From Parcubacteria group bacterium GW2011_GWA2_47_21 (GTDB lineage: Bacteria; Patescibacteriota; Minisyncoccia; Phycocordibacterales; DSPV01), in contig LCOC01000005.1 in NCBI GenBank assembly GCA_001000545.1, forward strand, positions 10,013 through 74,012: a stretch of DNA of 64,000 nucleotides, given 5' to 3'. The position numbers were made by a program, and so were the translations under genes. Below, in pieces: positions 3,455 to 49,282 of the stretch; positions within the stretch are counted from its first letter, which is position 1; every line of letters starts with the position of its first letter. The notes beneath the pieces were generated by a model. The model saw only the letters and a list, made by a program, of their open reading frames with translations, made no database searches and was not told the DNA's origin.

Positions 3455-3546
3455 ATGATTTTAATTGAATATAATCGCTTAATTTGTTTGGGAAAACTTT
3501 TGAACGGGGGGATTCCAAGAGGACGAATTTACTTTCTGGCAAGAAA

Positions 3547-7530: not shown

Positions 7531-7620
7531 TTGATACATTAGATGTGCTAACTTTGTTTCCAGAGGCACAAATACAATTTTGGCTTCAATTCAAACACAC
7601 ACAGAAAAAACAGAAAGAAC

Positions 7621-8064
7621 ATGATAAGAACAAAAGTACTGTTAGTGTCTGGAAGGAGAGGCGGCAAAACCAAGGAGGAGATTAAAACCTTAATGAAAGA
7701 TGAGTTAGAGCAAGCGGGGCACGAAGTGCTCATTGCTCAAAATGTTGACGATGCGTTATACCTTGTCTACCACGAAGAAAACGTGTCGGTAATGATAACT
7801 GAGGCGGACATCACTGGTTATCAAGACGGCGTGGAGTTAATCAGGGCGGTCCATGATATAAACCACGGAACGACTAAGACCGTTCTCACCAGCGGCCGGT
7901 ATGTGGAAGAGTTAATTGAACTCGCCCACCTCGCTGGTGCCACCGCTTACTGGTCAAGACCGTCCAGCATGAAGAGTTTGGTCCACCTCATTGCCCAAAT
8001 TCTTCAAGACCAAGGAGAAATGGCGGCTGAAGCAATGGTCGCGACCGCGCCGGCAATGGCGTAA
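7621..8064 (+). CDS. CheY-like receiver-domain protein, atypical (stand-alone, degenerate acidic pocket)
   Basis: 147 aa; receiver-like spacing of conserved T (TKTVLTSG) and K-equivalent region (GATAYWSRP, K replaced by R); putative phospho-Asp in ITEAD; no output domain. Confidence 0.5.
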   Translation: MIRTKVLLVSGRRGGKTKEEIKTLMKDELEQAGHEVLIAQNVDDALYLVYHEENVSVMITEADITGYQDGVELIRAVHDINHGTTKTVLTSGRYVEELIELAHLAGATAYWSRPSSMKSLVHLIAQILQDQGEMAAEAMVATAPAMA

Positions 8065-8093
8065 CCTAATAACCGCCGAAGCCAAAATCACCA

Positions 8094-8126
8094 CAGGCCC
8101 GTCCGAAATGGACGGCCTGTTTTTTA
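8094..8126 (+). terminator. Rho-independent terminator after receiver gene
   Basis: CAGGCCCGTCC-gaaat-GGACGGCCTG followed by TTTTTT. Confidence 0.75.
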
Positions 8127-8220
8127 TGCTTCACCATTTTTTTACTACTTTTTTATGATTCATCTTTATAAATTTTATAAATTCTGGTTAGCAAAATCTC
8201 TTTAATTGAAGCCCCGCCAA

Positions 8221-8303
8221 CGCGTCAACCTGCCAGGTTGACGCGCAAAAATGGCTTTGTTTAGACGTATAATCTAAAGTGGTCAACCTGCCAGGTTGAC
8301 GCG
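8221..8303 (+). promoter_or_regulatory. Operator-like pair of palindromes (core GTCAACCTGCCAGGTTGAC) bracketing a TATAAT -10 element upstream of the SPFH operon
   Basis: CGCGTCAACCTGCCAGGTTGACGCG at 8221-8245 and GTCAACCTGCCAGGTTGACGCG at 8282-8303, centres ~59 bp apart with TATAAT at 8268-8273 between them; a third copy of the core occurs at 27902-27928. Confidence 0.5.
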
Positions 8304-11060: not shown

Positions 11061-12551
11061 GTGAAAATCGTGCTTTATGTCGTTGTTTTTATCGGGGGCG
11101 CGGTCGTTATGGTTTTAGAGTTGGTGGCGACCCGTATTATCGCGCCCTATCTCGGCGCGTCATCAATCGTCTGGACGAGTTTAATCGGCGTCATTCTGGC
11201 GGGCCTAAGCGTCGGCTACTTTGTAGGCGGAAAAATCGCCGATAAGAAAGCGACTTACAAAGGACTCGCGCTTATTTTCATAATTGCCGGACTTTTGGTG
11301 ATTCTCATTCTCTACTTCAAGCCCATACTCGGCTTAATCGCAAAAATAGAAAACCTGCAAGCCGGAGCATTGCTCGCCTCTTTAATCCTCTTTACGCCGG
11401 CGACAATCGCTTTGGGCACCATTGCTCCTTACGCCGTCCGTCTCCGGATTGAGTCGCTCCAAAATTCCGGAAATATCGTAGGGAAACTCTACGCTCTTTC
11501 AACGGTCGGAAGCATTGTCGGCACCTTCCTCGGCGGGTTTTTCCTTATCTCGTATTTCGGGAGCACTAAAATTCTAGAATACTTAAGCGCCACTCTGATT
11601 TTATCCGGGGTCTTCGTATATGTGGCAGATACCAGAAAATCAACCGGCTTAATTGCCCTGCCTTTGCTCCCCATAATACTGACAGCAATCATTCCCCCTT
11701 ATGGCTTAATCCTGGAAAAAAACGCCGAACTTCTCACCGATGTGGACAGCGAATACAGCCGGCTTTGGGTCTACGACAGCAGAGATAAAAAAACCAATCG
11801 GCCCGCCCGCTACCTTACGACAAGCGTTGAACTCACCCAATCGGGCATGTATCTCGATAACCCCGAAGAACTCCTCTTGGATTATGCCAAACTGCTTGAC
11901 CTGGCGGAAATGTTCAACCCGAAACTTAACCGCGGGCTTTTAATCGGCGCCGGGGCGTATTCATACCCAAAATACTTTTTGAAAAAGTATCCGGAAGCCA
12001 CCCTGGACGCGGTAGAAATAGATGAAAAAATGACAATGTTAGCCAGACAATATTTCTTTCTGAAAGATAACCCGCGGCTTGCCATATACCACCAAGACGG
12101 GAGGACATTTTTAAGTCGAATTGATAATAAATACGACGCGATTTTCATTGATGCTTTCCTCTCGCCTCTTTCCATTCCCTATCACCTTACAACGGTTGAA
12201 ATTATAAAAATGGCAGAGAGCAAGCTCGCCACAGAGGGAGTGGTGATTGTAAATATCATCGGCGCGCTTCAAGGCCACCGAAGCGATTTTTTCACAGCGG
12301 AATACGGCACTTACAAAACAGTGTTTCCTAATGTATACGTTTTTCGCGCGCAACCGGAGCGAAAACCCGATGAATTGCAAAACATTATTCTCGTGGCCGC
12401 AAAATCAAATAACACGCTCGTTATTGACAATAAGCTTAGGAAAAGCGATTACTTAAAAAATTGGTGGCCAGAAAAAGTAACGACAAATTTGCCCATCTTA
12501 ACCGACGACTTCGCTCCGGTAGAAAAATATGTGACAAAATCAATGTTCTGA
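11061..12551 (+). CDS. Fused polytopic membrane domain + spermidine-synthase-like (polyamine aminopropyltransferase fold) protein
   Basis: N-terminal ~8 predicted TM helices (LVATRIIAPYLGASSIVWTSLIGVILAGLSVGYFVGGKIADK) followed by class I MTase-like/spermidine synthase core (GLLIGAGAYSYPKYF...AVEIDEKM...DAIFIDAF); apparent GTG start. Confidence 0.65.
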   Translation: MKIVLYVVVFIGGAVVMVLELVATRIIAPYLGASSIVWTSLIGVILAGLSVGYFVGGKIADKKATYKGLALIFIIAGLLVILILYFKPILGLIAKIENLQAGALLASLILFTPATIALGTIAPYAVRLRIESLQNSGNIVGKLYALSTVGSIVGTFLGGFFLISYFGSTKILEYLSATLILSGVFVYVADTRKSTGLIALPLLPIILTAIIPPYGLILEKNAELLTDVDSEYSRLWVYDSRDKKTNRPARYLTTSVELTQSGMYLDNPEELLLDYAKLLDLAEMFNPKLNRGLLIGAGAYSYPKYFLKKYPEATLDAVEIDEKMTMLARQYFFLKDNPRLAIYHQDGRTFLSRIDNKYDAIFIDAFLSPLSIPYHLTTVEIIKMAESKLATEGVVIVNIIGALQGHRSDFFTAEYGTYKTVFPNVYVFRAQPERKPDELQNIILVAAKSNNTLVIDNKLRKSDYLKNWWPEKVTTNLPILTDDFAPVEKYVTKSMF

Positions 12552-12620
12552 AAGACGGATACGAGAGATTTTTAATTCCCGAGTGATTTAACGGTTTCCC
12601 CCATCAAATTCATAATCCCG
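12462..12620 (+). repeat. Direct repeat copy A (~158 bp): intact 3' end of the membrane/spermidine-synthase-like gene plus downstream junction
   Basis: TGGTGGCCAGAAAAAGTAACGACAAATTTGCCCATCTTAACCGACGACTTCGCTCCGGTAGAAAAATATGTGACAAAATCAATGTTCTGAAAGACGGATACGAGAGATTTTTAATTCCCGAGTGATTTAACGGTTTCCCCCATCAAATTCATAATCCC; recurs at 13924-13992 and 14782-14939. Confidence 0.9.
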
Positions 12621-12782
12621 AAAGGCTTTGTTGAATAATTCATTTTATGGCTCTAAATAAGAGCATTTTGGGCAGTCAAAAAATGGGGCAAAATAGAGAT
12701 ACGGCTTAAAATAAGGATATTTTGGTTGAATTATTCAACAACGCCATCCCGAAAACCGAAAACATTATCTTGCCGTAAAAAA

Positions 12783-13835: not shown

Positions 13836-13923
13836 AAATTAACAACTATTCGCGTCAAGATGGCACAATTATACTGCCGTGTCTGACATAGAAGCAAATT
13901 CCGCGCAGAAGAATTCCTGACGG

Positions 13924-13992
13924 AAAATTTGCCCATCTTAACCGACGACTTCGCTCCGGTAGAAAAATATGTGACAAAATCAATGTTCTGAA
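13924..13992 (+). repeat. Direct repeat copy B (68-bp core of the junction repeat)
   Basis: AAATTTGCCCATCTTAACCGACGACTTCGCTCCGGTAGAAAAATATGTGACAAAATCAATGTTCTGAA identical to the core of copy A. Confidence 0.9.
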
Positions 13993-14047
13993 GAACAGAT
14001 GCGGATAATAATGGGATATGTCCTTAAAATTTTTCGTATTTATACGG

Positions 14048-14781: not shown

Positions 14782-14939
14782 TGGTGGCCAGAAAAAGTAA
14801 CGACAAATTTGCCCATCTTAACCGACGACTTCGCTCCGGTAGAAAAATATGCGACAAAATCAATGTTCTGAAAGACGGATACGAGAGATTTTTAATTCCC
14901 GAGTGATTTAACGGTTTCTCCTATCAAGTTCATAATCCC
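14782..14939 (+). repeat. Direct repeat copy C (~158 bp, 4 mismatches vs copy A), abutting first pilin-like gene
   Basis: Same 158-bp sequence as 12462-12620 with GTG->GCG and three substitutions in the distal part; its minus strand encodes the C-terminal tail (IMNLIGETVKSLGN*) of ORF 14892-15083. Confidence 0.9.
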
Positions 14940-15083
14940 AAACGCCGAGAACATTATGAACATTCCGATGATACCGAAGATAATCGCTAATCCGCCCTCT
15001 TTCCTCTTCGCCGCGTCATCACCTTTGGCTACATAACGAAAGACCCCCCAAATAAATACCAGAAAAGCCAGTGACAGAAGCAA
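14892..15083 (-). CDS. VirB2/TrbC-like small membrane protein paralog, N-terminally truncated (possible gene fragment)
   Basis: Two hydrophobic helices around loop VFRYVAKGDDAAKRKEGG; lacks signal peptide and overlaps 3' end of next paralog by 65 nt. Confidence 0.35.
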   Translation of the reverse strand: MLLSLAFLVFIWGVFRYVAKGDDAAKRKEGGLAIIFGIIGMFIMFSAFGIMNLIGETVKSLGN

Positions 15084-36839: not shown

Positions 36840-36959
36840 CCAATCTTTTCGGCCGGCACAAGCCACCTTTGGGTGGCTTTCTCTTTGCGCACTTACTTAA
36901 AAAATGCGCTCGCGTGGTGGGGCTTCGATGCGGACGAGGCAAAGCAAAACTATTTTTGC

Positions 36960-37030
36960 GGGAGGAAAAGGATTTGCTTTGCCTCGGCTCTTTTTCCAAA
37001 ACCACGGGGATTTGGTATCCGCCGCGCCGG
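36960..37030. repeat. Inverted repeat, left copy (71 bp) flanking UDG-like/radical SAM cassette
   Basis: GGGAGGAAAAGGATTTGCTTTGCCTCGGCTCTTTTTCCAAAACCACGGGGATTTGGTATCCGCCGCGCCGG; exact reverse complement at 39184-39254. Confidence 0.9.
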
Positions 37031-37203
37031 TGTTGACGAAAAAACTGGAGATAGTTGGCGTAGATCGTGTGAGCGATTTTCGACACTTGGTTTTTTCTGC
37101 GACAATATCAAAATTATAAATTCCGATATATCGAGAAGATTCGTATGCTTCCCACTCTTCACGCGCGCTTCGCAAGCGATGTCCGTCCGCATCTCTTCCA
37201 TCT

Positions 37204-37686
37204 TCATGAGACAAGTCGTTCAATAACGGCTTTCACTGCTTGAACATATCGATTTTTTTCCTTTCGCTTGTACACCATGATGTACGAGGGATGTTGAATA
37301 GGCACATACCATTTCCCTCCATACTCAAAAGAGCGATATCTGTAAGACAATTTTGGCATCTGTAGTCCAATCTGACGAAGAACAAATGTTGCTGTCTTGT
37401 TACCAAGCAATAAGACAACGCGAGGATTAACTGTCTGAATCTCAACTTGTAGTTCAGGATAGCACAGCACACACTCTTCAGGTGTCGGATACCTCAACTT
37501 CCCCTTGGAATCCAATGGAGGAAACTTTACAAGGTTTGTTTTGTAAAAGCTTGCATGGCGGCATCGTGCCTCAATTTCTGCCACCAGCTTACCGGTGTTT
37601 GTGTCTATATGAAGAGGAGCGCAAATCTCGGCATTAATTGCCTTTTTCGCAGAAAGACCAACCCACATTACATTTGCGTTTTTCAT
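37204..37686 (-). CDS. Uracil-DNA glycosylase superfamily-like protein (family 4/5-like, non-canonical motif A)
   Basis: UDG-fold pattern: hydrophobic core VVLLLGNKTATFVL and C-terminal HPS motif (PIQHPSYI); N-terminal motif region VGLSAKKA instead of GEGPG. Confidence 0.45.
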   Translation of the reverse strand: MKNANVMWVGLSAKKAINAEICAPLHIDTNTGKLVAEIEARCRHASFYKTNLVKFPPLDSKGKLRYPTPEECVLCYPELQVEIQTVNPRVVLLLGNKTATFVLRQIGLQMPKLSYRYRSFEYGGKWYVPIQHPSYIMVYKRKEKNRYVQAVKAVIERLVS

Positions 37687-37749
37687 CGGTTTATTCCATT
37701 AGTTTCGGTAATGAATTTCCGAAGAATCTCATCGGACACTTCGGAAAAA

Positions 37750-38910
37750 TTACCACTCGTGAAATTGAAAGACGCTCGTCCTAAAGTTAACGCCATTTTT
37801 CACAGACGATTCTTTGAGTCCCGCCGCTAAATCGTAAGACATCCGCATATCATCAATGGTTTCAGTTTCAAAACCAAAAATGAAATACCCTTTTACATTT
37901 ATGCCGGCGAGGAATAATCTTTCGATGGTCCGTTTGATCAAATCCACATCCGAAGTTTTGTGAATCATTTTGAGTATGCGCGGAGATCCAGACTCAATAC
38001 CAATGAACACCTCCTTACAACCTGACCGCTTCAGTTCAAGTAATTGCGCATCACTCAATTTATAAAATGATAACACATGAGCCATGGCACGCCATGTTAC
38101 GGGAACATGCCCAAACATACGAACCGCACGCTCCACACTATCAGCATTCCTTAGGAATAAATCGTCAAGAACCCGCACCGAATCAACATTCGGGTACAGT
38201 TCGCATATCATCGCCACTTCATTTGCCACGCTTTGAGCATTTCTTTCTCTAATCGGTGTTTCCCTGTTCAGAGATCGAGCCGCTGAACAAAACGCGCAGT
38301 TATACATACACCCGCGACTGGTCACAATACTCACTTCGTTGAATCCTAACGTGTGTCGCAACGGCTGATTTACGAAGAATGACCTGTCTAAGGGAATATT
38401 GGAAATATCCTGAGGGAAATACGGTGAACTCACAGATACCGTAATAACCCGCTTATTACCTTTCTGACTAATGATATCAAGGGGCTTCCCCTGCACAATC
38501 GCGCTGACCACAAAATCCCCTTCTCCAATGACTATATCCACGGGACAAGAAGTATTCCAATGCAATATAGTTTTATAGAGATTCTTCGTAGCTAATCCAC
38601 CGATGATGAACCGTACTCCACCCTTAATTGATTCAACTATTTCACGAACCAAGTGCAAATTAGTTGTGAATACATTCAGAGCCACATAGCACGGACGCTT
38701 TTGACGAATAACCGCCAAAAGAATTTCAAGAGAAATGTTTGCCTCAACAGTATCCAACAGTTCAACGGTTATTCCATTACTCCAGAGATCCGTAGCTATA
38801 TACCCTAATCCAAGTGGTGGTAAAGAATCTTCATCGTATCCGTCCACCTTATCTCGAAATAAGGGTGAGTTGATAATCAAAACATCGAGCGATTGACTTT
38901 CTTCTTGCAT
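37750..38910 (-). CDS. Cobalamin-binding-domain (class B) radical SAM protein
   Basis: N-terminal B12-binding-like Rossmann segment (LPPLGLGYIATDL...VRFIIGGLATKN...DIVIGEGD) followed by radical SAM CxxxCxxC (GCMYNCAFCSA). Confidence 0.7.
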   Translation of the reverse strand: MQEESQSLDVLIINSPLFRDKVDGYDEDSLPPLGLGYIATDLWSNGITVELLDTVEANISLEILLAVIRQKRPCYVALNVFTTNLHLVREIVESIKGGVRFIIGGLATKNLYKTILHWNTSCPVDIVIGEGDFVVSAIVQGKPLDIISQKGNKRVITVSVSSPYFPQDISNIPLDRSFFVNQPLRHTLGFNEVSIVTSRGCMYNCAFCSAARSLNRETPIRERNAQSVANEVAMICELYPNVDSVRVLDDLFLRNADSVERAVRMFGHVPVTWRAMAHVLSFYKLSDAQLLELKRSGCKEVFIGIESGSPRILKMIHKTSDVDLIKRTIERLFLAGINVKGYFIFGFETETIDDMRMSYDLAAGLKESSVKNGVNFRTSVFQFHEW

Positions 38911-39183
38911 GACACTTTCCTCCTTTTTCTGTGTTGTGAGTGTTCTGGGTTTGCTGTACTGGCGGATAAACGCCGTCGCTTTTCTTCATTCACGAACGAG
39001 CCGTGAATGAGTCGATTTATCTTTCTTGAGCGAATGTTGAGTTGTCTTTTGATCCACCATGTTTTTATCTCCTTTCTTTTTTAGATTGTCAAAAAACAGC
39101 TTTGACTGATTGCTATTCTACATTAGTTTTTGATTTTGTGCAAGGCCGCCCGCCGAAAATCCGCCGCGCATTCCTCCCCACAC

Positions 39184-39254
39184 CCGGCGCGGCGGATACC
39201 AAATCCCCGTGGTTTTGGAAAAAGAGCCGAGGCAAAGCAAATCCTTTTCCTCCC
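39184..39254. repeat. Inverted repeat, right copy (71 bp)
   Basis: Reverse complement of 36960-37030; the two copies enclose 37031-39183. Confidence 0.9.
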
Positions 39255-39326
39255 TTTTGAAAATAGGTGCGAGCTTGGTACAATAGACACACCATAAGGA
39301 GATTAGGAGGAATTTTTCCTATTTCA

Positions 39327-39355
39327 CAATGGGCTTCCGCAATGGAAGCCCATTG
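39327..39355. repeat. Hairpin repeat element CAATGGGCTTCC-GCAAT-GGAAGCCCATTG, copy 1
   Basis: 31-bp identity (CACAATGGGCTTCCGCAATGGAAGCCCATTG) with 46290-46320. Confidence 0.9.
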
Positions 39356-39643
39356 AATTTCCGCAACGCCGCGCGCTTCGCGCGCGTGAAGTGTCAGGTT
39401 CAATCCGAAGATTTTTTGAGCGAACGATTTTTTGAGAGAAAGAGGGGCGAAGACATTTAATATAATGCTTGCCCCACGCCACCCGTGCGCGCATTATGAA
39501 AACTTTGCCGATTTTCAAATCGGCAACTCCATAAGATACGAGTTAAGTTCCTATAACTTCTTCACCTCGTTAGAAACGCTCTCAATACCGCAAAGATTTT
39601 ATTTTTCATTATTTCAATCAACCGGCGATTGGTGTCGGCTATT

Positions 39644-42637
39644 TTAGCCTTCATTATGTCTGTATAAATCTCCAAGTTTCAAAACGCTCCGATTCTCCCA
39701 CCAGCTTATATCCTTTTTCCCAACTTCCAGATTTTCTAGAATGAATAAATAACGCCATTCCTCTTTTGCCGGATCTGCCTCGGTTAGCATCGAGACATAT
39801 TTCTCGCCCCGCTCTTTTTTCGCCTTGTCTCGCTCGTCCATTCGTCCCTTTACTTCAATAATATAATTTACTACTCTATCGCCTTCATTTGCGCGTGCGA
39901 TAAAATCTGGAAAGTAATTTACATAAAACCCTTGCCAAAGATACTCAAAGTTATATCCCACGCCCTGCTGATGATTATAAATCCAGCCACTCACGTCCTC
40001 ACACGCATCTAATAATTGTGCGGCGCGCAACTCGTCATTATTAGCCATGCATTGCTTATCAAAACCGGCTCGCTCGGGATTCTCAAGGGCATTTTCAAAA
40101 ATCACCTGGTATGGCTCAATAACCCTGCTTTCTAAAATATCAAATTTGTCCGTCGCTGGTTTCTCATTTGAGCGCAAGCCGTTGATAAATTTGACGAGTT
40201 CCTGCTTCACCGCCGCCATCACATCGTCATTGAATATATTTTTCTTCACGATCTTGTCTGTCTTTTCATCCACCGAATCCAACCGCAAGGACGCACCGGC
40301 AGGAAGATCAAATACCCGCTTTTCCAAAAATCGCTTCACCACATCGAGTACGCGCAATTTATCGGAATGAGACAAACGCAATTCATTTAAAATCGGCCGG
40401 ACATAGCCAGAAATAAGTAACCGATCCAGCCCGTAATAATTTGCTGATTGTTCAAACTCAAATTCAAGCCCCTTTTCAATATCTTTCTCAAACTGTGTTT
40501 TGATCTTTAGTTTATCGGCAAATTCAATCCATTCAAGTCGCTTTGCCAACTCCGGCAAATCTGCCTCGCGGAAATTATCATGCCAAGTTTTTACATGCTC
40601 AATCAGCCCTAAAAATTTAATCATTCTCACATTACGAGCCTTCCGCACATCCGCATCAGAGAGCGGATTTACAACTGTGTATACTGGCGGTTCTTTCTCT
40701 CCTGCGTCCACTTCATCAACAATGTCGTCTATCTCGTCAATAATCGCTTGAAATGAGGGATGCTGGATAACATAGAGATTTTCAGGTTTGGAATATACTG
40801 CCCCCTCATCATCCATTTCCGGTTGATGCATTTTGCGAAGCCCTCGGCCCAATGTCTGCTCCGCTAGGGTCCGTGAATCACACGGCCGAAGTGGCACAAT
40901 GGTTTTCACATTCCGCACATCCCAGCCCTCTTTCAGCATCAAAACCGCGACAATCACGTTAAATGGATTCTCCACTACTTCGCCCTTCAATTGTGGATCC
41001 TCAATATATTCCTTATCTATCAAATGCACGAGCTTACGCACTTTGTCCCACTCCTTGTCGTTTTTAAGTTCCTTTTCGCCGATGTGTATTTGCACAACAG
41101 TTGTTTTGTCATCTTTTACAAACAGTGTTTGCTTGGCTTCGTCATCATAAAATCCTTTCACCGGCAGATTGTCTTGTGATAAGTCTTTGCCCTCATCGTC
41201 AATCTCCCGATACACTAAATAATTATATATCTGATTGGCTTCTTTTCTATCGTTACAGATAATAAAAAGAATTTGTTTGCGCTTATCGCCTTCTTGGTCA
41301 AAAACTTTTTGATTTTCCTGCCAGCGTTTGATACCTGTACGGAGCAGATTTTCGTACTTCTCCCAAGCGCATAGCTTTTCGTTATTGATAATACCGCGTG
41401 CCTCATCGCCCTCGTACACTTTCACCTTTTCCAGTTTTGGGAGTTTTATTATGCCGTCCCGTTTCGCATCGCCGAGCGAATACAAATCAACTGTGTGTTT
41501 GAATAAATCCATCCAACGGTAACGAATCTCCTCATTATCGTTCTTTTTCGTTTTATGAGACCCCTTTTCTTCAAAAAGCGTGGCCGATAAATCAATCTGT
41601 AAGCCAACTTCGCAAAGCTTATCTATATTTCTTATAGAGCGAATCCAACCCAATTCTTCGGCCGCCTGCTTTTCTTTCACGCCAATTTCCTTCAGGTTCT
41701 TTGTTTTCTTTTCATACTCCTTGTGCTTTTCTTCGTCGTGAACATGATGTGCCTCGTCGTTGATGACGAGAACATTCGATGAATTCTTAAAACTATCAAC
41801 CAATGCTCGCTTTTGGTTCTCTAACTTTTTGGGCATTGCCGTTTCAAAAATGCCAAGTTCCTTCGATAATCCCACGCTTTCTTCTTCACCTTCGTTTCCC
41901 GATTCCCTATAGAGCTTGTGGATGTTCGTTACTATAAGCGCACCTTCATCCGGCGCAAGCTCGCTTGGCACGGTTTCCGGCGAATACACTTTGAGATTCC
42001 AATATCGCTCAAGTTCTTTTGGAACTACCGGATCACCGTGGAAAATATCCGGCCTTTCATCTGACGGCGAAAAGTCCTCCAAAAGACGGTCAAGCACAAA
42101 CAAGTTCGGTGCAATCAAAATACTATGCTTGCCAATGTTTAAATGTTTTTCACCTTCAATCACTGCGTTTAAGTAACTCCATGCAATTACCAAGCCCATG
42201 ATTTTAGTCTTGCCGGAACCTGTTGCAAGTTGCGCGCCAAGCTTGGTCCAATCGTCGCGTTGGGGCACAATTTCAAAATCGATCACTTTGGAGATGTCCT
42301 CACGCCGACGAACCCCACAAACTTCGTAAAGATAAATAAAAGTTTCAAGTGCACGCCTCTGATGCGGCCAGTATTTGAAGCGATAACTTTTCCCGTCCCT
42401 TCCTTTTAACTCATGCGGAAATGGACGAAACCAATGTCTCAAAAGTAAATCCGTTGTTTCTGAAATATTCTTTTCAAACGGCATAACTGGCTTGTATCTT
42501 GGTTGCTCTTTCGGATAGGGCAGTTTAGCGCTTTGCAAAGCAAACCTTCGCCAAGCATCTACACGCTCACGGAGTTTTTGGATGACGATTTTCTGCGCTG
42601 GCAGAGTTTTCTCAGTTTTAGATGGTTTTGTAGGCAT
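39644..42637 (-). CDS. res: Type III restriction-modification system restriction subunit (Res), SF2 helicase + nuclease
   Basis: 997 aa; Walker A LATGSGKTKIM, DEAH box VINDEAHHV, helicase motifs; last gene of C-mod-...-res operon. Confidence 0.8.
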   Translation of the reverse strand: MPTKPSKTEKTLPAQKIVIQKLRERVDAWRRFALQSAKLPYPKEQPRYKPVMPFEKNISETTDLLLRHWFRPFPHELKGRDGKSYRFKYWPHQRRALETFIYLYEVCGVRRREDISKVIDFEIVPQRDDWTKLGAQLATGSGKTKIMGLVIAWSYLNAVIEGEKHLNIGKHSILIAPNLFVLDRLLEDFSPSDERPDIFHGDPVVPKELERYWNLKVYSPETVPSELAPDEGALIVTNIHKLYRESGNEGEEESVGLSKELGIFETAMPKKLENQKRALVDSFKNSSNVLVINDEAHHVHDEEKHKEYEKKTKNLKEIGVKEKQAAEELGWIRSIRNIDKLCEVGLQIDLSATLFEEKGSHKTKKNDNEEIRYRWMDLFKHTVDLYSLGDAKRDGIIKLPKLEKVKVYEGDEARGIINNEKLCAWEKYENLLRTGIKRWQENQKVFDQEGDKRKQILFIICNDRKEANQIYNYLVYREIDDEGKDLSQDNLPVKGFYDDEAKQTLFVKDDKTTVVQIHIGEKELKNDKEWDKVRKLVHLIDKEYIEDPQLKGEVVENPFNVIVAVLMLKEGWDVRNVKTIVPLRPCDSRTLAEQTLGRGLRKMHQPEMDDEGAVYSKPENLYVIQHPSFQAIIDEIDDIVDEVDAGEKEPPVYTVVNPLSDADVRKARNVRMIKFLGLIEHVKTWHDNFREADLPELAKRLEWIEFADKLKIKTQFEKDIEKGLEFEFEQSANYYGLDRLLISGYVRPILNELRLSHSDKLRVLDVVKRFLEKRVFDLPAGASLRLDSVDEKTDKIVKKNIFNDDVMAAVKQELVKFINGLRSNEKPATDKFDILESRVIEPYQVIFENALENPERAGFDKQCMANNDELRAAQLLDACEDVSGWIYNHQQGVGYNFEYLWQGFYVNYFPDFIARANEGDRVVNYIIEVKGRMDERDKAKKERGEKYVSMLTEADPAKEEWRYLFILENLEVGKKDISWWENRSVLKLGDLYRHNEG

Positions 42638-42708
42638 TGTGGATAACTATTGATTTTTAATAAGGGCTTGCTACAATACAGATGATCGTAAGATCACGGA
42701 TTTTAGAG

Positions 42709-43485
42709 CTAAGGGGCCCCAGAAATGGGGTCCTTTGTGCGTTTACCGTTATACTCCTTTTTCCAACAAATAAAATCTCTGATATTAAAAATATCAAATA
42801 TCCCCAAACCGCTTGTTTTGAGTTCGTTTAATTCCCTAGAGATTCGGCCGGCGGTTGCGAATAAAACAACCTTTTTGCCCACTTTAAGCAACCTTTCTAA
42901 GGGATCGGCGAAATCACTATCTCCGCTCCATAGTATAAAAGTTTCGGCGCTGTTTCGCTCACAATCAAGAAGCATATCAACTCCGATTTCAACATCAAAA
43001 TTACATTTCATATCCTCAATAAAATACTCCCCTTTTTTATTCATATCCTTGAAACGCTCATTCAAATATTCAATGGTCGCAATTTCATATTTCTTTAAAA
43101 GCGCCCGGCGAATAAACTGACTAACCAATACCGTTGAATCAGGCAATATACTGGAAACATCAATGGAAAAATTCATAATTTTTACCGGCTTTGTCCGAAG
43201 AATGTATTTGCAGTTCTCTGCTTCTGTTTTTTCTTTCTCTGATCTTTCATTTCCAGCCAAATAACCATTATAAAAATTAACTGCTTCAACTGTATCAAAA
43301 GAACCCAGAAATTGTTTTAATCTTTTAAGTTCAATATGCCAACCAAGTTTTTCACTCCACGGGCGCACGTTCGCATAATCAATATAGACACGAGTTTTTG
43401 CGCTAAAAATACTATCGAGTTGGCTAATAATTTCTTGCTGGTCCTTGGCAATTTTTTCAATCCTTTCTGTTTTTGGTGTGAACAT
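42709..43485 (-). CDS. NYN-domain (LabA-like, PIN-related) nuclease-family protein
   Basis: NYN blocks VYIDYANV, DVEIGVDML, LWSGDSDFADPL. Confidence 0.65.
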   Translation of the reverse strand: MFTPKTERIEKIAKDQQEIISQLDSIFSAKTRVYIDYANVRPWSEKLGWHIELKRLKQFLGSFDTVEAVNFYNGYLAGNERSEKEKTEAENCKYILRTKPVKIMNFSIDVSSILPDSTVLVSQFIRRALLKKYEIATIEYLNERFKDMNKKGEYFIEDMKCNFDVEIGVDMLLDCERNSAETFILWSGDSDFADPLERLLKVGKKVVLFATAGRISRELNELKTSGLGIFDIFNIRDFICWKKEYNGKRTKDPISGAP

Positions 43486-43497
43486 ATGGGTAGGTAA

Positions 43498-43710
43498 TTA
43501 GCTTATTTTCTGGTATCGATAACTATATCGAATATTGTCGTTAAGGAATTGCCCCGGCGATGAGGCCTGAAAAAATTGCCGATATAAATGATCCGGCACA
43601 TTAAAATACTGATATATATCGCCCGAAGTAAACTCCACCTCTAAAGTACCCAACTGCCGATCGTAGCCAATTGAGCGAATATTTGAGGACGATACTGATA
43701 CTCTATGCAT
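43498..43710 (-). CDS. KTSC-domain protein
   Basis: 70 aa; IRSIGYDRQLGTLEVEFTSGDIYQYFNVPDHLYRQFFQASSPGQFLNDNIRYSYRYQKI matches KTSC domain pattern. Confidence 0.6.
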   Translation of the reverse strand: MHRVSVSSSNIRSIGYDRQLGTLEVEFTSGDIYQYFNVPDHLYRQFFQASSPGQFLNDNIRYSYRYQKIS

Positions 43711-43712
43711 AG

Positions 43713-45800
43713 TTATTTTATCACGACTTTCGTCATCACAATCCCGTCGTTTCCGAAAATGTCTACGACCTTGACGGCAATGGTATATTCGCCGGATTTT
43801 TCGTAAGTATGGAAGGCCTTAAAAATCAAATCCTCAACCACTTTTTTGCCTTTTCGCTTGCGGAAACTCTGCCACTCATTTTCAAAAATAGGCCCATGTC
43901 CGTCTTCTTCATTCTTCAAATTTTCGTAATTCCAATCTACCGCCCAGAAATCCACAAAGCTCTGCCAGCTTTTTTCTTTTTCCAGCCACTTTTTGAGCTC
44001 ATCCCTTCGTTCCGGCTTCTGGCTTTCAAGAAAACTCTCCACATCCACCTCAAGCCCAGAAAGTTCAATGCTGGCCTCTTTGCCATCGACAACTTTGTGA
44101 ACCTTTACCGCAAGTGGCGCGAAAAAAGCAATATTGGGCATATCACTCACTTTCTCTGGACTCTTAACGCCTTGTTTAATGAGCTCCAAGCGTTTTTTCA
44201 CTTCTTCAATGGCGCTTGCCGGAATCATGCGTACAAAAACCTGCACGCCAAATTCTTCTTTCGCCTTTTCAACTGCCTGATTAAGGTGCGCGGTAAAATC
44301 CGCCGAAAGCACATAACACTTTTTAAAATCGGTGTCTTTGACTTCTTTGGCAATCGCTTGGATTTGCTCGGAAACTATCGGCTGGGAAAGCGGACCAACA
44401 TGAATCCACGCGCCTCTTTTCTTGCCGTGTAGTAATTTTGAATATGGCGTGTACTCTCCGCCAAAAAGTTCAATAATTGCTTGCCGATAAGCATCGGCTT
44501 GATTCCCAACCTGAATCGGGTCCCATTTCACGCCGCGTTGATAATAACCCATATTCTCAACCGTAAACGGACGGACTTTATAAACCCCCGCATTCTTTTC
44601 ACTTTTTTGCTTGCCGTTTAGCTCAATCAATCTTTTTCGTGCAGTATGAACAGCAAATTTTGAGTTATCAATCCCAATCCATGTGTAATTTAAACCGTCT
44701 GTCATTTGCTCAGTAGCTTTACAAGTTGTACCAGAGCCCATGAAAGAGTCCAAAATCACACCATTTTTAGGACAAGACGTTTCAATGATTCTCAATAATA
44801 GCTCAATTGGTTTTTGAGTAGGGTACCCTGTACGCTCAAGAGCTTTTGGATGCTCTTTATTGATTAACCAGTAGTCTCTTAGTGGGTTACCTTCTGGATC
44901 TTTGTAAATGACACGAGCGAATTTATTACTTTTAATTAATGCTTTTATATTTTCCTTATTTTCACTTCCCTTATAAACGATTAATTGTTTCTCACCATTT
45001 TTAAGTAAGTTGGTGGTATATCCTCTGTCAAGCGTTAGTTGTCTTTTGTCATCAATTTCTCTAAGTGATCGAAAATAATAATCATCGGTTTTGCTATATC
45101 GTAGTATGACATCATGGTCTTTTTGAAAATCGTTAGATGGAGCTGGCCACTTATCATAACACCAGACCACTTCGTTTCTAAAGTTTTGATATTCAAAAAT
45201 TTCATCCATCAATACTTTTACATAGTGAGATGTGTGCCAATCTAAATGCACATAAATTGAACCTGTAGGGGCGAGAAGCTCTTTCATTAAAAGCAACCGC
45301 TCGCGCATCATTTGGAGAAAACTATCCAACCCATTTTTCCAGGTGTCTTTGTAGGCAATCGTTTCTATAATCGTCGGCTCTTTTACTGACATCACGCCCT
45401 CCTCCTCATCCACCTCAATATCAATAGAATTTTCTGCCACAAAATCGTTCTGTACCATAAACGGCGGATCTATGTAGATAAGGTCAATTTTATTGCGGTA
45501 TCTATGTTCGCCAGAGATGGAATCTTTTTCGTCTAAAAGCGTCTTGAGCGCAACTAAATTATCGTTTGTCCAAATAAGCCGATTTTTAGGAAAATCCGCT
45601 GATTTAATAATTTTACCGGTCCCAATTTGTCCTTCGTGAAAAAATCTAAGGGTTTCGCCCTTCTTTTCTTCTTCGTTTGATTTATGCGGATAAACAATTT
45701 CCACTACTTGCGTAGGCACGGCTTCCGCAAGCGTCTTTTTGTCCATGCCGACATAGGCGAGCTTTGGCTTCTTTGGTTTTAGTTCAATTTCTTTTTTCAT
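43713..45800 (-). CDS. mod: Type III restriction-modification system methyltransferase subunit (Mod), beta-class N6-adenine MTase
   Basis: Mod hallmark WTNDNLVALKTL, motif IV DPPF (LIYIDPPF) before motif I FMGSGTT, TGYPTQKP. Confidence 0.85.
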   Translation of the reverse strand: MKKEIELKPKKPKLAYVGMDKKTLAEAVPTQVVEIVYPHKSNEEEKKGETLRFFHEGQIGTGKIIKSADFPKNRLIWTNDNLVALKTLLDEKDSISGEHRYRNKIDLIYIDPPFMVQNDFVAENSIDIEVDEEEGVMSVKEPTIIETIAYKDTWKNGLDSFLQMMRERLLLMKELLAPTGSIYVHLDWHTSHYVKVLMDEIFEYQNFRNEVVWCYDKWPAPSNDFQKDHDVILRYSKTDDYYFRSLREIDDKRQLTLDRGYTTNLLKNGEKQLIVYKGSENKENIKALIKSNKFARVIYKDPEGNPLRDYWLINKEHPKALERTGYPTQKPIELLLRIIETSCPKNGVILDSFMGSGTTCKATEQMTDGLNYTWIGIDNSKFAVHTARKRLIELNGKQKSEKNAGVYKVRPFTVENMGYYQRGVKWDPIQVGNQADAYRQAIIELFGGEYTPYSKLLHGKKRGAWIHVGPLSQPIVSEQIQAIAKEVKDTDFKKCYVLSADFTAHLNQAVEKAKEEFGVQVFVRMIPASAIEEVKKRLELIKQGVKSPEKVSDMPNIAFFAPLAVKVHKVVDGKEASIELSGLEVDVESFLESQKPERRDELKKWLEKEKSWQSFVDFWAVDWNYENLKNEEDGHGPIFENEWQSFRKRKGKKVVEDLIFKAFHTYEKSGEYTIAVKVVDIFGNDGIVMTKVVIK

Positions 45801-45801
45801 A

Positions 45802-46005
45802 TTATTTCAAAAGCTCATCGCTTGAAACACCAAGAGCTTTTGCCAGTTTCGTAATAGTTGAAAGTGTAGGATTCGTCTTTCCGTTTTCTATGTTGCTTAC
45901 AAACCCTTTATCCACGGCAAGTATCCGGCCAATCTCACCTTGGGATATGCCCTTCGCGGTTCTAATGCATTTTAGATTTTTGCCTAGTTTCGCAGATTCG
46001 TTCAT
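45802..46005 (-). CDS. XRE-family HTH regulator, controller (C-protein)-like, immediately upstream of mod
   Basis: 67 aa, HTH ISQGEIGRILAVDKGFVSNIENGKTNPTLSTITKLAKALGV; stop 2 bp before mod start codon. Confidence 0.6.
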   Translation of the reverse strand: MNESAKLGKNLKCIRTAKGISQGEIGRILAVDKGFVSNIENGKTNPTLSTITKLAKALGVSSDELLK

Positions 46006-46063
46006 TATTCATAGTATATCCTGTTGTTGTATTCTACACTATCCGTTGTGGTATACTATAACT

Positions 46064-46291
46064 ATGCCTAATTACTTTCTCTACGCTCGCAAAAGCACCG
46101 ATGTTGAAGACAAGCAAGTCCGGTCTATTGACGACCAACTTACTGTCTTGCGAGCGTTGGCGAAAGAGCAAAATTTCTCCATCACCCGAGAGTTCATAAA
46201 GAGGCAATCCGCGAAAATGCCCGGACACCCCGTCTTTGATGAAATGCTCGCCCTGATTGAGAAAGGCGAAGCGCGCGGCGGTCCACAAACA
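46064..46291 (+). pseudogene. Serine recombinase (resolvase/invertase-type) N-terminal catalytic-domain fragment, interrupted after ~75 aa by the hairpin repeat
   Basis: MPNYFLYARKSTDVEDKQVRSIDDQLTVLRALAKEQNFSITREFIKRQSAKMPGHPVFDEMLALIEKGEA matches Y-x-R-x-S-T...Q...L serine recombinase N-terminus; similarity ends where palindrome 46290-46320 begins. Confidence 0.6.
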
Positions 46292-46320
46292 CAATGGGCT
46301 TCCGCAATGGAAGCCCATTG
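46292..46320. repeat. Hairpin repeat element, copy 2
   Basis: Identical 31-bp core to 39325-39355. Confidence 0.9.
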
Positions 46321-46549
46321 TTTGGCTGGTAAAAAATCTTTCAGTTGGATTATGGTGGGCGGTATAGGGCTCGACCCTTACAGGGTCAGTACACCTTTCC
46401 CATTTTCTCGCGATAAGAATCGCTCGAAAATATGGGAGAAGGTCTTCAAATCCTCTCTCGCAACCAAAATCTTTTGCCCATCTAAATATATCAAAAAACT
46501 TGTTTGTTACAACTCAAACCAATTTTTTCAAAAAGTCATTTTCAAAAAC

Positions 46550-46636
46550 GGAAGGGGTGGGATTCGAACCCACGTGGGGCTTGCGCCCCCAGCCGATTTC
46601 GAGTCGGCGCCGTTATGACCGCTTCGGTACCCTTCC
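46550..46636 (-). tRNA. tRNA-Ser (anticodon CGA), class II
   Basis: Manual fold of reverse complement: acceptor GGAAGGG/CCCUUCC, anticodon stem GCCGA/UCGGC loop CUCGAAA, variable stem-loop GGGGGC-GCAA-GCCCC, T-arm GUGGG-UUCGAAU-CCCAC; 3' end faces the R-M island. Confidence 0.75.
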
Positions 46637-46700
46637 AACTGGTAGCTTTAGACCCCTGCCCGCCGAAGTCTCGGTGTAGGCGGGACTCAGCCACCCTTCC
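46637..46700 (-). other. tRNA-like 5' fragment (GGAAGGGUGGCUGAGU...) directly upstream of tRNA-Ser, not foldable into a complete tRNA
   Basis: First 16 nt resemble acceptor+D-arm start of a class II tRNA with the same acceptor 5' strand as tRNA-Ser; remainder forms an unrelated GC hairpin; no matching 3' acceptor strand. Confidence 0.5.
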
Positions 46701-46794: not shown

Positions 46795-46866
46795 GGCCCT
46801 ATCGTCTAACGGTTAGGACACAGGCTTTTCAAGCCTGGAATCGGGGTTCGATTCCCCGTGGGGTCA
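46795..46866 (+). tRNA. tRNA-Glu (anticodon UUC)
   Basis: Manual fold: D-arm GUCU-AACGGUUA-GGAC, anticodon stem CAGGC/GCCUG loop UUUUCAA, T-arm CGGGG-UUCGAUU-CCCCG; acceptor has two G-U pairs. Confidence 0.65.
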
Positions 46867-47896: not shown

Positions 47897-49282
47897 ATGG
47901 TGATTTTAGGCGTTGAAACGAGTTGTGACGAAACGGCTCTGGCTTTAATAGAAGCCGAGGACGATTCGGTGCGGGTCCTGGCAGACATCACGCATTCGCA
48001 AGCGGCGCTTCACGCAAAATACGGTGGCGTGTTTCCTAATCTTGCCAAACGGGAACACAGCCGAAACCTGATTCCATTGCTGAAAAATCTCTTAGCGGAA
48101 TCAGGTTTCGGAAATCCCAAATCACAAGCGCCCCGCCTGCCAATCGGCGGGCAGGCAAATTCCCTGCCTGCGCCGAATCGGCTTCGGCAGGCAGGCAAAC
48201 AAATCCAAAGTGTTAAATCCAAAACACTAAACGCTAAACGCTCTACGCTAAACGCTATCTTCGAGCGGGAGCCGGAGTTGTGGGAACAATTTGAGAGGTT
48301 TATCCCGACAATTGAAAAGCCGCCGATTGATGCGATTGCAGTAACCTACGGACCCGGGCTTGAGCCGGCGCTGTGGGTCGGCATTAATTTCGCGAAAGCG
48401 CTCGGAGTGATTTGGAACATCCCGGTGATTCCAACGAATCATATGGAAGGGCACATCGTTTCCGCGCTGTTGCGCAGAAACGCAAACTCTAAATCCGAAA
48501 CTCTAAATTCCCTGCCTGCGCCGAATCGGCTTCGGCAGGCAGGCAAACAAATCCTAAATTCAAAATCTCAAATACTAAATGCTACACGCTATACACTACA
48601 CGCCATACGCTTTCCTGCTATTGCTTTACTCATCTCCGGCGGGCATACAGAGTTGGTGCTGGTTAAAAAGCTGGGACAATACGAAATTATTGGCGAGACG
48701 AAAGATGATGCGGTCGGCGAGGCGTTTGATAAAGTGGCGCGCATCCTTGGACTTCCCTATCCTGGAGGACCGGAAATCTCCGCGCTGGCAGAGCGGGCGC
48801 GGCAAGCAAAACAAGGTTCGACCTTGGAGTCGGGAAAAAGGTCGAACCTTGTTTTGCCAAGACCCATGCTCCATTCGGGCGACTACCACTTTTCTTTTTC
48901 CGGTTTAAAAACTGCGGTGCTGTACACGGTAAAAAAGATTCCGAGGGTCACGGCCGCAATCAAACAAGCGCTCGCGAAAGAGTTTGAAGATTCCGTCACG
49001 GAAGTGCTCATTTCCAAAACAACCAAAGCCATCAAAGAATACGAAGCAAAGACCTTAATCATCGCCGGCGGGGTAATCGCCAACAAACACATCCGCTCCG
49101 CCTTTGAGGAACTTCGCGCATCTGCCTTCCCTTCCCTTGAGCTCCTCATCCCCGAAATCCCCCATTCCACCGACAACGCACTCATGATCGCCGTTGCGGG
49201 GTATCTCAACCTAAAATCCGGCCGCCGACCAGCAAAGGGAAACGAGTTTATAATCATCGCCTCCGGCCGCGTTCGACTGTAA
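47897..49282 (+). CDS. tsaD: tRNA N6-adenosine threonylcarbamoyltransferase TsaD (Kae1/Gcp family) carrying in-frame repeat insertions
   Basis: ILGVETSCDETA, NHMEGH, LISGGHTELVLV, DDAVGEAFDKVARILGLPYPGGP, FSFSGLKT conserved blocks; interrupted by two copies of a 49-bp palindromic repeat and AT-rich simple repeats (peptide NSLPAPNRLRQAGKQI occurs twice). Confidence 0.85.
   Translation: MVILGVETSCDETALALIEAEDDSVRVLADITHSQAALHAKYGGVFPNLAKREHSRNLIPLLKNLLAESGFGNPKSQAPRLPIGGQANSLPAPNRLRQAGKQIQSVKSKTLNAKRSTLNAIFEREPELWEQFERFIPTIEKPPIDAIAVTYGPGLEPALWVGINFAKALGVIWNIPVIPTNHMEGHIVSALLRRNANSKSETLNSLPAPNRLRQAGKQILNSKSQILNATRYTLHAIRFPAIALLISGGHTELVLVKKLGQYEIIGETKDDAVGEAFDKVARILGLPYPGGPEISALAERARQAKQGSTLESGKRSNLVLPRPMLHSGDYHFSFSGLKTAVLYTVKKIPRVTAAIKQALAKEFEDSVTEVLISKTTKAIKEYEAKTLIIAGGVIANKHIRSAFEELRASAFPSLELLIPEIPHSTDNALMIAVAGYLNLKSGRRPAKGNEFIIIASGRVRL
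48158..48206. repeat. Palindromic repeat copy 1 inside tsaD (AATTCCCTGCCTGCGCCGAATCGGCTTCGGCAGGCAGGCAAACAAATCC)
   Basis: Identical 49-mer at 48506-48554; nested palindrome CCTGCCTGC...GCAGGCAGG. Confidence 0.9.
48506..48554. repeat. Palindromic repeat copy 2 inside tsaD
   Basis: Same 49-mer as 48158-48206. Confidence 0.9.

Follow-up and report, generated by a model that had tools for sequence, protein, structure and literature searches.

The coupling of a uracil-DNA glycosylase (UDG) superfamily protein to a radical S-adenosylmethionine (rSAM) enzyme, both presumed to act on DNA, is a feature of UdgX and its linked rSAM (TIGR03914-type). A gene pair of this general kind is encoded in the 64,000-nt stretch analysed here (the window), which belongs to contig UX94_C0005 of Parcubacteria group bacterium GW2011_GWA2_47_21; the pair lies within a cassette at 36960–39254 that is bounded by inverted repeats (IRs). 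It differs from the UdgX arrangement in that the rSAM has an N-terminal B12-binding domain and motif A of the UDG-like protein reads GLSAK. Judging from profile matches, the UdgX-type pairing is the closest named idea, and the present pair falls outside it. A sequence-only reading of this DNA had placed the two genes with catalogued UDG-like/rSAM pairs; the TIGR03914-type family is indeed among the matches, but the UDG-like protein scores only 29.7 bits against its cut-off of 189.95, and the 25 NCBIfam matches of the rSAM, all B12-type or methylthiotransferase-type, include no UdgX-linked rSAM model.

Each protein also has described relatives of its own. Family 4 and 5 UDGs (T. maritima TM0511, T. 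thermophilus UDGA and UDGB, S. tokodaii UDG) share the fold, the HPS motif B, the TN..K.P motif with its conserved Asn and, in longer members, the Fe-S cysteines. The protein described here differs from family 4 in that Leu replaces the motif A Glu, its 160-aa form is without Fe-S ligands, and it is always coupled to an rSAM. In family 5 UDGs, motif A is GLAPG, which the Leu in the motif A of the window protein resembles. Class I cobalamin rSAMs (QCMT/MgmA 9CCB, TsrM, OxsB, TokK) have the same Rossmann-type B12-binding domain and rSAM barrel; the present enzyme differs in its low identity to them (14–19%), its scores below the cut-offs and its own C-terminal motifs. We know of no class I cobalamin rSAM that is coupled to a DNA glycosylase-fold protein.

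The reading preferred here is that a tRNA-linked genomic island holds an exchangeable, repeat-bounded cassette whose rSAM-UDG module would act on a pyrimidine of DNA in phage-host conflict; for this statement as a whole, we estimate a probability of roughly 0.45. Its functional parts differ in strength. Action on a base of DNA or of deoxynucleotides, in a defence or mobile-element context, is somewhat favoured, and the specific model of modification at the DNA level is tentative. The features of the cassette are listed below, where R denotes the repeat element to which the IRs belong.

36907–37030, no strand: distal arm of R, with the perfect IR core at 36960–37030
37031–37203, minus strand: pseudogene, 3'-end stump of a guanylate-kinase-like gene left from an ancestral cassette
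37204–37686, minus strand: UDG-fold protein of 160 aa (KKU70486.1), Pfam UDG PF03167
37686–37796, minus strand: out-of-frame remnant of the rSAM C-terminus, residues 411–447 of the intact protein
37750–38910, minus strand: rSAM open reading frame (ORF) of 386 aa with a B12-binding domain, shortened from an intact form of 447 aa
38950–39060, minus strand: remnant of the zinc-ribbon gene c16, with ribosome-binding site and start codon kept
39115–39143, minus strand: sigma-70-like promoter, TTGCAC-N17-TAGAAT by eye, a consensus match only
39145–39254, no strand: proximal arm of R, with the IR core at 39184–39254 and an inner extension at 39145–39183
39255–39420, no strand: outer part of R, in which the 3' end of a serine-recombinase gene is found as a copy (frag)

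The UDG-like protein is a member of the UDG superfamily at the level of fold. Pfam UDG PF03167 scores 54.2 bits over a cut-off of 24.3, and the predicted structure (pLDDT 92.6) has a TM-score of 0.78 to both 4ZBX and 1VK2. The closest folds are those of family 4 UDGs, UdgX and family 5 (TM-scores of 0.76–0.78 to families 4/5), and sequence matches to solved structures are weak. The protein belongs to a clade of its own, and the motifs invariant in this family are VWVGLSAKK, TNTGK, FYKTNLVK, RYP, LLG and HPSYIxVYxR. H132-P-S-Y (motif B) and N51 in FYKTNLVK correspond to the motif B and the base-recognition Asn of family 4. Family 4 is defined by a motif A of GE(A/G)PG and a 4Fe-4S cluster held by four Cys residues. 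In the window protein, motif A is VGLSAK, with G-L-S-x-K invariant across its family, and both the acidic residue and the four Cys ligands are missing. Longer members keep four cysteines at the family 4 Fe-S ligand positions; in the 160-aa form of the Patescibacteria the N-terminal CxxC is gone and F replaces the cysteine of KC. Family 4 cut-offs are missed by TIGR00758 (44.9 against 125.3) and NF040953 (39.9 against 250). A profile search recovered at least about 1,800 UDG-like proteins at E ≤ 1e-5, and no Rosetta-stone fusion was found among the best 120 profile matches, all of which are single-domain proteins of 140–212 aa.

The rSAM ORF exceeds the Pfam cut-offs for both the B12-binding domain (PF02310, 44.7 against 32.1) and Radical_SAM (PF04055, 65.4 against 29.5). 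The three cysteines of its cluster motif, C201-x3-C205-x2-C208, are invariant, and together with the N-terminal B12-binding domain this CxxxCxxC core places it with the cobalamin-type (class B) rSAMs. Cobalamin binding and methyl transfer by the enzyme are predicted from this domain architecture and are not readable from sequence. The best fold matches include QCMT/MgmA (9CCB), TsrM, OxsB and TokK, and sequence matches to solved structures are again weak. Homologues are 447 aa long, and their C-terminal domain has invariant motifs of its own, FQFRPYHGT and GRxQFNFxSGN. All curated B12-rSAM subfamilies tried (HpnJ, PhpK, BchE, QCMT, HpnR, BzaD etc.) score below cut-off, the best being HpnJ at 90.7 against 577.6. 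Membership in a characterised rSAM or UDG family was thus ruled out, as every curated cut-off is missed. Present labels for these proteins, such as 'uracil-DNA glycosylase', 'DNA polymerase, bacteriophage-type', 'YgiQ' and 'Mg-protoporphyrin cyclase', are untrustworthy.

These results bear on several claims of the sequence-only reading. It had described perfect 71-bp IRs at 36960–37030 and 39184–39254, and the two arms are 71 nt long and 100% complementary, with 0 chance matches expected. The assignment of a UDG fold with an HPS motif and a non-canonical motif A holds. A class B rSAM enzyme was correctly recognised from its domains, but the ORF in the window is a frameshifted version of the gene. 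The claim that the IRs enclose exactly two co-oriented genes is right for the two minus-strand ORFs and overlooks the c16 and guanylate-kinase-like stumps. An outcome that the reading had named as fatal to it, an rSAM of a well-characterised non-DNA pathway with an unrelated UDG-like neighbour, did not come about: the rSAM does not belong to a well-characterised family, and the UDG-like gene is not an unrelated neighbour.

The latter point rests on the distribution of the pair. A pattern scan of one genome per species identified 326 rSAM relatives, and all counts out of 80 given below refer to the best 80 of these. The 80 loci are found in Patescibacteria, many Bacteroidota, Campylobacterota, Clostridia, Desulfosporosinus, Ignavibacteria, Gallionella, Peribacteria and one archaeon, a Woesearchaeote. 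A UDG-like gene is adjacent to the rSAM gene in 78 of them, and the remaining two contigs end before the downstream DNA. It is nearly always directly downstream on the same strand, with overlapping stop and start codons in the closest relatives. Among the Patescibacteria copies, dN/dS is 0.07–0.14 for the rSAM gene and 0.06–0.20 for the UDG-like gene. The rSAM and UDG-like genes are thus supported by comparative sequence evidence as a functional pair, as opposed to chance neighbours, and the pair is an autonomous, horizontally transferred module under purifying selection that is independent of R. The mobile and undescribed character proposed by the sequence-only reading therefore stands as far as horizontal spread and the lack of a description found are concerned; the IRs are not, as it had supposed, the ends of a transposon dedicated to the pair. 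No curated NCBIfam, PADLOC or PHROGs entry and no paper describing a B12-type rSAM with a UDG-fold partner was found.

The neighbouring genes recur in several combinations. A gene for a helix-turn-helix (HTH) protein with an M78 peptidase domain, which matches RmrA in PADLOC (2e-50), lies upstream of the pair in 45/80 loci. RmrA is the antitoxin of RosmerTA, described with a Zn-peptidase. This gene opens the operon and is followed by a PIN-like gene (44/80), often by a membrane protein without a Pfam match (27/80), and then by the rSAM-UDG pair. The first two genes resemble RosmerTA, while the rSAM-UDG pair, often with the membrane protein, is a combination unknown in described systems. Neither the RmrA-like nor the PIN gene occurs in the window or in any Patescibacteria copy. 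Kiwa genes lie beside the pair in three loci: L029 (10185–11725; KwaB, Pfam 2e-35), L071 (9577–11092) and L072 (11460–12023), the last two recognised by blastp cluster, the KwaA-like membrane protein of L071 having no Pfam match. Nearby integrase genes, recognised by eye from sequence, form a cluster in 12/80 loci, and an excisionase-like cluster with a Pfam HTH_17 match is present in 7/80. A canonical-looking thymidylate-kinase-like gene is adjacent in 11/80 loci and in the viral contig L083, a MazG-like nucleotide pyrophosphohydrolase gene directly follows the UDG-like gene in two Peribacteria loci (L036 9891–10229 and L042 9881–10213), and a HAD fusion is the neighbour in 1/80. The overall context is the signature of an accessory genetic-conflict module, as opposed to housekeeping repair.

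In PADLOC v2, the UDG-like protein has no match and the rSAM has only a weak match to PDC-M51A, short of family level. PDC-M51 combines an rSAM (A) with a P-loop kinase (B); the similarity of the rSAM (4e-13) and of the thymidylate-kinase-like neighbour (4e-12) to these components looks to be at superfamily level. PDC-M51 differs in lacking a UDG-like component, and PDC systems are themselves candidates. Full-text searches found no literature on PDC-M51 or on R-like repeats in Parcubacteria.

Among viral contigs, only 6 weak matches were obtained in 2.9 million, of which one, L083 (IMG/VR), is a true member. At 79–8277 this contig encodes a 343-aa membrane protein, the thymidylate-kinase-like protein, the rSAM and the UDG-like protein. 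On one side is a primase of which just the first ~190 residues are left, and on the other a terminase large subunit beginning at profile position 390; the module therefore appears to be an insertion in a decayed prophage, part of which it deleted. PHROGs gave no match for either protein. Phage-encoded DNA hypermodification was rejected on these grounds, given the few weak viral matches and the placement of the sole true member.

In the preferred model, we infer that both proteins share one substrate, a pyrimidine base. DNA binding would fall to the UDG-fold subunit, which would also flip the target base out of the helix or excise it. Radical chemistry on this base would be the part of the cobalamin-type rSAM, with C-methylation as the likeliest reaction. 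In phage-host conflict, the result would be of use in one of two ways, as self-marking or protection of DNA or as damage to replicating foreign DNA. The role in DNA-base modification or anti-restriction put forward by the sequence-only reading is, like this model, a hypothesis. Several points weigh against this reading. Motif A is without the acidic residue of family 4, and glycosylase activity is therefore uncertain either way. The cobalamin chemistry is a matter of prediction, and AprD4, which is not known to use B12, is among the closest folds of the rSAM. The RmrA and PIN genes might form a toxin-antitoxin system of their own that happens to travel along with the pair. The thymidylate-kinase-like, MazG-like and HAD neighbours point to free nucleotides as the substrate. 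On the side of anatomy, the three deletions peculiar to the window within 2.4 kb could be errors of the original assembly instead of biology, and the reversed orientation seen in contig L141 could be an assembler path through the 134-nt identical repeat (both described below).

The recurrence of these thymidylate-kinase-like, MazG-like and HAD genes is the reason why a role at the nucleotide level is a live rival. In this case, with antiviral chemistry of the kind known from OxsB or the prokaryotic viperins, a deoxypyrimidine nucleotide would be turned by the rSAM into an analogue, to be phosphorylated by an enzyme of the thymidylate-kinase type. The UDG-fold protein would then have one of two tasks, to remove the analogue from the DNA of the host or to make its incorporation into phage DNA lethal through abasic sites. 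One of the nearest folds is OxsB, a cobalamin rSAM of oxetanocin A biosynthesis. OxsB acts on a deoxyadenosine nucleotide, and its product is antiviral. PDC-M51, which joins a related rSAM to a related kinase, is a further point in favour of this rival. Most loci, however, including all those in Patescibacteria, have no dedicated kinase, known UDG-fold proteins all act on DNA, the identity to OxsB is just 14–16%, and the tight translational coupling of the two genes suits a complex better than two separate steps. We consider this alternative unlikely.

Less probable still is a DNA repair pair, in which the rSAM would reverse or process a particular DNA lesion in the manner of spore photoproduct lyase, with recognition or excision of that lesion left to the UDG-fold protein. 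Members of the UDG superfamily are mainly repair enzymes, the nearest structures are those of family 4 and 5 UDGs and UdgX, and UDG-like/rSAM pairs of the TIGR03914 type are annotated as putative 'DNA modification/repair'. Against repair stand the patchy distribution suggestive of horizontal transfer, the position of the pair outside the core genome in every lineage examined, and its placement behind RosmerTA-type regulators, beside Kiwa, restriction-modification (R-M) and integrase genes, and in a swappable cassette.

Should the rSAM-UDG pair be the core of a new nucleic-acid chemistry of immunity, its rSAM would be the first of the cobalamin type to act on DNA bases or deoxypyrimidine nucleotides, with a glycosylase-fold partner. 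The result would be either a DNA base modification of a new kind or an attack of the 'poison and excise' type on phage DNA during replication. Action on DNA or deoxynucleotides would extend cobalamin radical chemistry to the genome or its precursors and would add a new type of component to phage-defence or DNA-modification systems. The 326 loci among species-representative genomes and the number of UDG-like proteins make this a large family. The pair occurs in cultured Bacteroidota and Lachnospiraceae and is therefore directly testable.

The copy in the window is damaged. Eight assemblies of the same population (L001 and L139–L145, from several Rifle groundwater runs, 99.7–100% identical to the window) contain an intact 447-aa rSAM gene and an IR of ~163 nt with a 134-nt identical core; in L001, a 99.9% identical contig, the stop codon of the full rSAM gene overlaps the UDG start. 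In the window, ~116 nt of the rSAM gene are deleted at ~37761–37770, between two TTTCAATTTC-like repeats. This deletion shifts the frame, so that residues 1–386 and 411–447 are in different frames; the remnant of the C-terminus overlaps at its end with the UDG start codon (ATGA). A second deletion of ~100 nt, at 37031/37030, removes an intrinsic-terminator hairpin (CTCGCAGT...ACTGCGAG followed by a T-run) that is located just inside the downstream arm and kept in all other assemblies. The third, at 39254/39255, removes 86 nt from the outer part of the upstream arm. An exact protein look-up of the 386-aa rSAM gave no match, which fits a truncation peculiar to this assembly. The three deletions may represent genuine variation or else mistakes made in the original assembly. 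Because the rSAM gene is frameshifted and the terminator lost, the rSAM-UDG copy of the window is probably inactive in this assembly, and whatever the origin of the deletions, the long form of the other assemblies is the version to reason about.

A putative promoter just within the proximal arm points toward the cassette genes; a promoter scan scored the same site as TGCACA-N16-TAGAAT (9 of 12). The outer part of the distal arm (36907–36959) carries one partner of a 14-bp hairpin (CGAGGCAAAGCAAA / TTTGCTTTGCCTCG). The guanylate-kinase-like stump has 91% DNA identity to positions 2853–3027 of contig L126 and, by tblastn, 83% identity to residues 132–173 of the encoded protein, the counterpart gene in L126 being Pfam Guanylate_kin. 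The c16 remnant retains its first ~20 and last ~20 codons, the middle being deleted. As the ends of the window cassette, including both stumps, are 90–92% identical to those of the L126 cassette, the rSAM-UDG pair has replaced the middle of an older c16-type cassette. The replaced part belonged to a set of c16, GTP cyclohydrolase II, OMP decarboxylase and guanylate kinase genes, and a compact nucleotide-chemistry cassette of the L126 type is the ancestor of the one in the window. L126 itself (25–3418) carries the R-bracketed set of c16, GTP cyclohydrolase II-like, OMP-decarboxylase-like and guanylate-kinase-like genes, as do L099, L116, L124 and L128.

By sensitive comparison, the IR arm is part of a conserved, non-coding and hairpin-rich element of 150–470 nt, named R here. 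It has several conserved hairpins and no conserved reading frame (for example, L122 1798–2266 and window 36907–37030). RNAalifold analysis of 24 copies recovered the conserved hairpins, with a main 14-bp stem that is invariant, 3–7 pairs with compensatory changes, and a small CUGCCC/GGGCAG stem with a few such changes. This covariation is too scant to call R a structured RNA. An E-value scan of six R-bearing loci against Rfam gave no match within R, and a gathering-threshold scan of the window returned tRNAs only, the IR core not being a tRNA. A stretch of terminator followed by repeat behind the UDG gene is also conserved behind the same pair in other Patescibacteria contigs, which have different flanks and no upstream repeat copy.

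The sequence-only reading had proposed a search for further copies of the IR. There are none in the 64-kb window beyond the two arms, and a multi-copy miniature inverted-repeat transposable element (MITE) within the genome was rejected on that count. Elsewhere, a 26-mer from the arm was found at 46 groundwater metagenome loci, only 1 of which holds rSAM-UDG. At least 14 loci contain R as an inverted pair, the arms 2–5 kb apart, around cargo that is unrelated from type to type; at least six such types are represented:

Cargo 1: c16 zinc-ribbon, GTP cyclohydrolase II, OMP decarboxylase and guanylate kinase
Cargo 2: sigma factor and HtrA, with Hsp20 and an IS30-like transposase added in one locus
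Cargo 3: Liv-type ABC transporter
Cargo 4: GreA-like protein, thymidylate-kinase-like protein and another rSAM
Cargo 5: IucA/IucC-like protein and a hydrolase
Cargo 6: aspartate racemase

Cargo 1, the GreA-like protein and rSAM of cargo 4, and the IucA/IucC-like protein were tested with Pfam; the other names were read from ORF translations. That the IRs are ordinary multi-copy repeats had been named as a way in which the proposal could fail. They are multi-copy across genomes, and yet they mark the boundaries of the cassettes. In L123 (10141–13609), the R-bracketed genes encode a GreA/GreB-C-domain protein, a thymidylate-kinase-like protein, a 346-aa rSAM and a 192-aa protein without a Pfam match, and this combination of kinase and rSAM recalls viperin-type arrangements.

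Beyond one R arm there is usually a large serine recombinase (LSR; Resolvase, Recombinase and Zn_ribbon_recom domains) whose 3' end abuts a tRNA, with an inverted copy of the LSR 3' end between the LSR and R. The LSR is intact in related contigs, compared with a stump of ~70 aa in the window. To call the IRs arms of a repeat family, at a cassette site linked to a serine recombinase, is more apt than to call them transposon ends, and a putative action of the recombinase on them may account for exchange of the cargo. The present arrangement has in common with SCC/Ccr elements, tRNA-targeting tycheposons and shufflons an LSR beside a conserved integration landmark (a tRNA), interchangeable cargo, end repeats and, as far as the assemblies show, segments in both orientations; the R arms differ in being 150–470 nt long, inverted and highly conserved, and in including a copy of the recombinase's own 3' end. 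No direct att repeats were identified, no search aimed at them having been made.

The recombinase itself shows a further arrangement. In L126, L097, L116, L124 and L128, contigs that are 99–100% identical, its body lies either way round between inverted ~132-nt copies of its own 3' end. With an inverted copy on each side of the gene, the last ~44 codons could come from either one. The recombinase gene may be part of an invertible segment of its own, or assembler ambiguity may be responsible. L128 (1–7119) is a palindrome with 2.2-kb arms in which the cassette is flanked on either side by the recombinase and R. A fold-back of the assembly at the inverted repeat is the likeliest cause, and it calls for caution in reading other contigs.

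Both orientations of the rSAM-UDG cassette are represented among the nine assemblies, the opposite one in L141 alone. Only L139, L140, L141 and the window span both arms. In L141, the flank with the type III res gene (the Res flank) is joined to the UDG end of the cassette, and in L139, L140 and the window it is joined to the rSAM end. L142–L144 have the UDG end beside the TrxB flank, in agreement with L139, L140 and the window, and L001 and L145 extend to no informative flank. Variants located at both edges of the arms, outer and inner, show L141 to be recombinant within the 134-nt identical core, and the c16-type cassette is likewise found in both orientations among 99–100% identical contigs. 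This is what an inversion polymorphism would look like. Long identical arms would allow inversion of the cassette and could also permit the swapping of cargo by recombination. Of the hallmarks of an invertible segment, the IRs are present and an LSR is nearby, but only as a stump in the window. Assemblers may take either path through an inverted repeat that is longer than the k-mer.

A composite or MITE-flanked transposon moving both genes would account for the long, perfectly inverted flanking repeats and for their occurrence in many contigs. An ORF and Pfam scan, however, found no transposase domain in the cassette, and no target-site duplication is seen at the arm ends, the flanks of the long-form arms being different (...GCTTGCTT up to one end and CATTTTTTAA from the other). 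The non-coding arms remain beside the LSR and tRNA while the cargo changes, and in all other lineages the rSAM-UDG pair is without R. We regard a transposon as very improbable. An artefact or coincidence, with an IR created by misassembly and two genes side by side by chance, has next to no likelihood and was refuted as regards the existence of the IR and of the gene pair: the window does differ from every other assembly by its deletions, and IRs beyond the assembler k-mer are prone to misassembly, but of nine independent assemblies four (the window among them) span both arms with unique flanks on each side, and the gene adjacency is kept across phyla.

The cassette is situated at one end of a larger element. 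The tract at ~36.9–46.6 kb is a decayed genomic island tied to tRNA-Ser, and we hold the anatomy as a whole with high confidence. Its order is tRNA-Ser, a dead LSR, an HTH gene with a type III R-M system, the copy of the LSR 3' end, R, the cargo and the inverted R'. The features outside the cassette are as follows.

39644–42637, minus strand: type III Res (ResIII 7.5e-12; PADLOC REase_III 5.8e-14)
42709–43485, minus strand: NYN-domain protein of 258 aa, between res and mod
43498–43710, minus strand: KTSC-domain protein of 70 aa, between res and mod
43713–45800, minus strand: type III Mod (N6_N4_Mtase 2e-41; PADLOC MTase_III 2.5e-68)
45802–46005, minus strand: Xre-type HTH protein, last of the R-M operon span 39644–46005
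46073–46279, plus strand: N-terminal remnant of the LSR, ~70 aa, within a pseudogene at 45764–46618 (plus strand)
46266–46357: second copy of the recombinase 3'-end repeat, after the LSR stump
46548–46637, minus strand: tRNA-Ser (CGA), at the edge of the low-GC island
46795–46866: tRNA-Glu, near the LSR pseudogene

The lower GC content that the sequence-only reading had reported is evident, as the cassette has 0.41–0.45 compared with 0.50–0.55 in the left flank, and the low-GC tract runs to ~46.5 kb. This tract (36.9–46.5 kb) and the LSR stump beside tRNA-Ser identify a tRNA-linked serine-recombinase island. The stump retains Resolvase positions 2–63 of 145, fused to the C-terminal repeat. The type III R-M system that had been noted next door is also there, with the Mod methyltransferase and the Res helicase-nuclease in one operon. 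The NYN protein has weak matches to the PADLOC NYN and HEC-09 models. A second IR pair (39326–39381 and 46266–46321; 56 nt, 80% complementary) encloses the recombinase stump and the Xre HTH gene together with all of the type III R-M operon. The arms have an identical core of 31 nt with the palindrome AATGGGCTTCC-GCAA-TGGAAGCCCATT, at 39325–39355 and 46290–46320, and each of them originates from the serine-recombinase gene, namely from its 3' end.

The R arms and the LSR suggest how the tiny genomes of the Candidate Phyla Radiation (CPR), which are poor in classical mobile elements, could shuffle accessory cargo at tRNA-linked sites. Taken jointly, the proposals that rSAM-UDG represents a new immunity chemistry and that R with the LSR forms an unrecognised CPR platform for cassette inversion and exchange are somewhat doubtful.

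Other repeats of the window lie outside the island. Direct repeats at 12462–12622, 13920–14003 and 14782–14942 (84–161 nt, 93–99% identical, 0.9–2.3 kb spacing) resemble duplicated gene ends or intergenic modules. Within the TsaD/Kae1-like gene (47897–49282) there is a 102-nt direct repeat (48157–48258 and 48505–48606, 86% identical) that encodes the recurring peptide ...LPAPNRLRQAGKQI..., an insertion inside a conserved enzyme.

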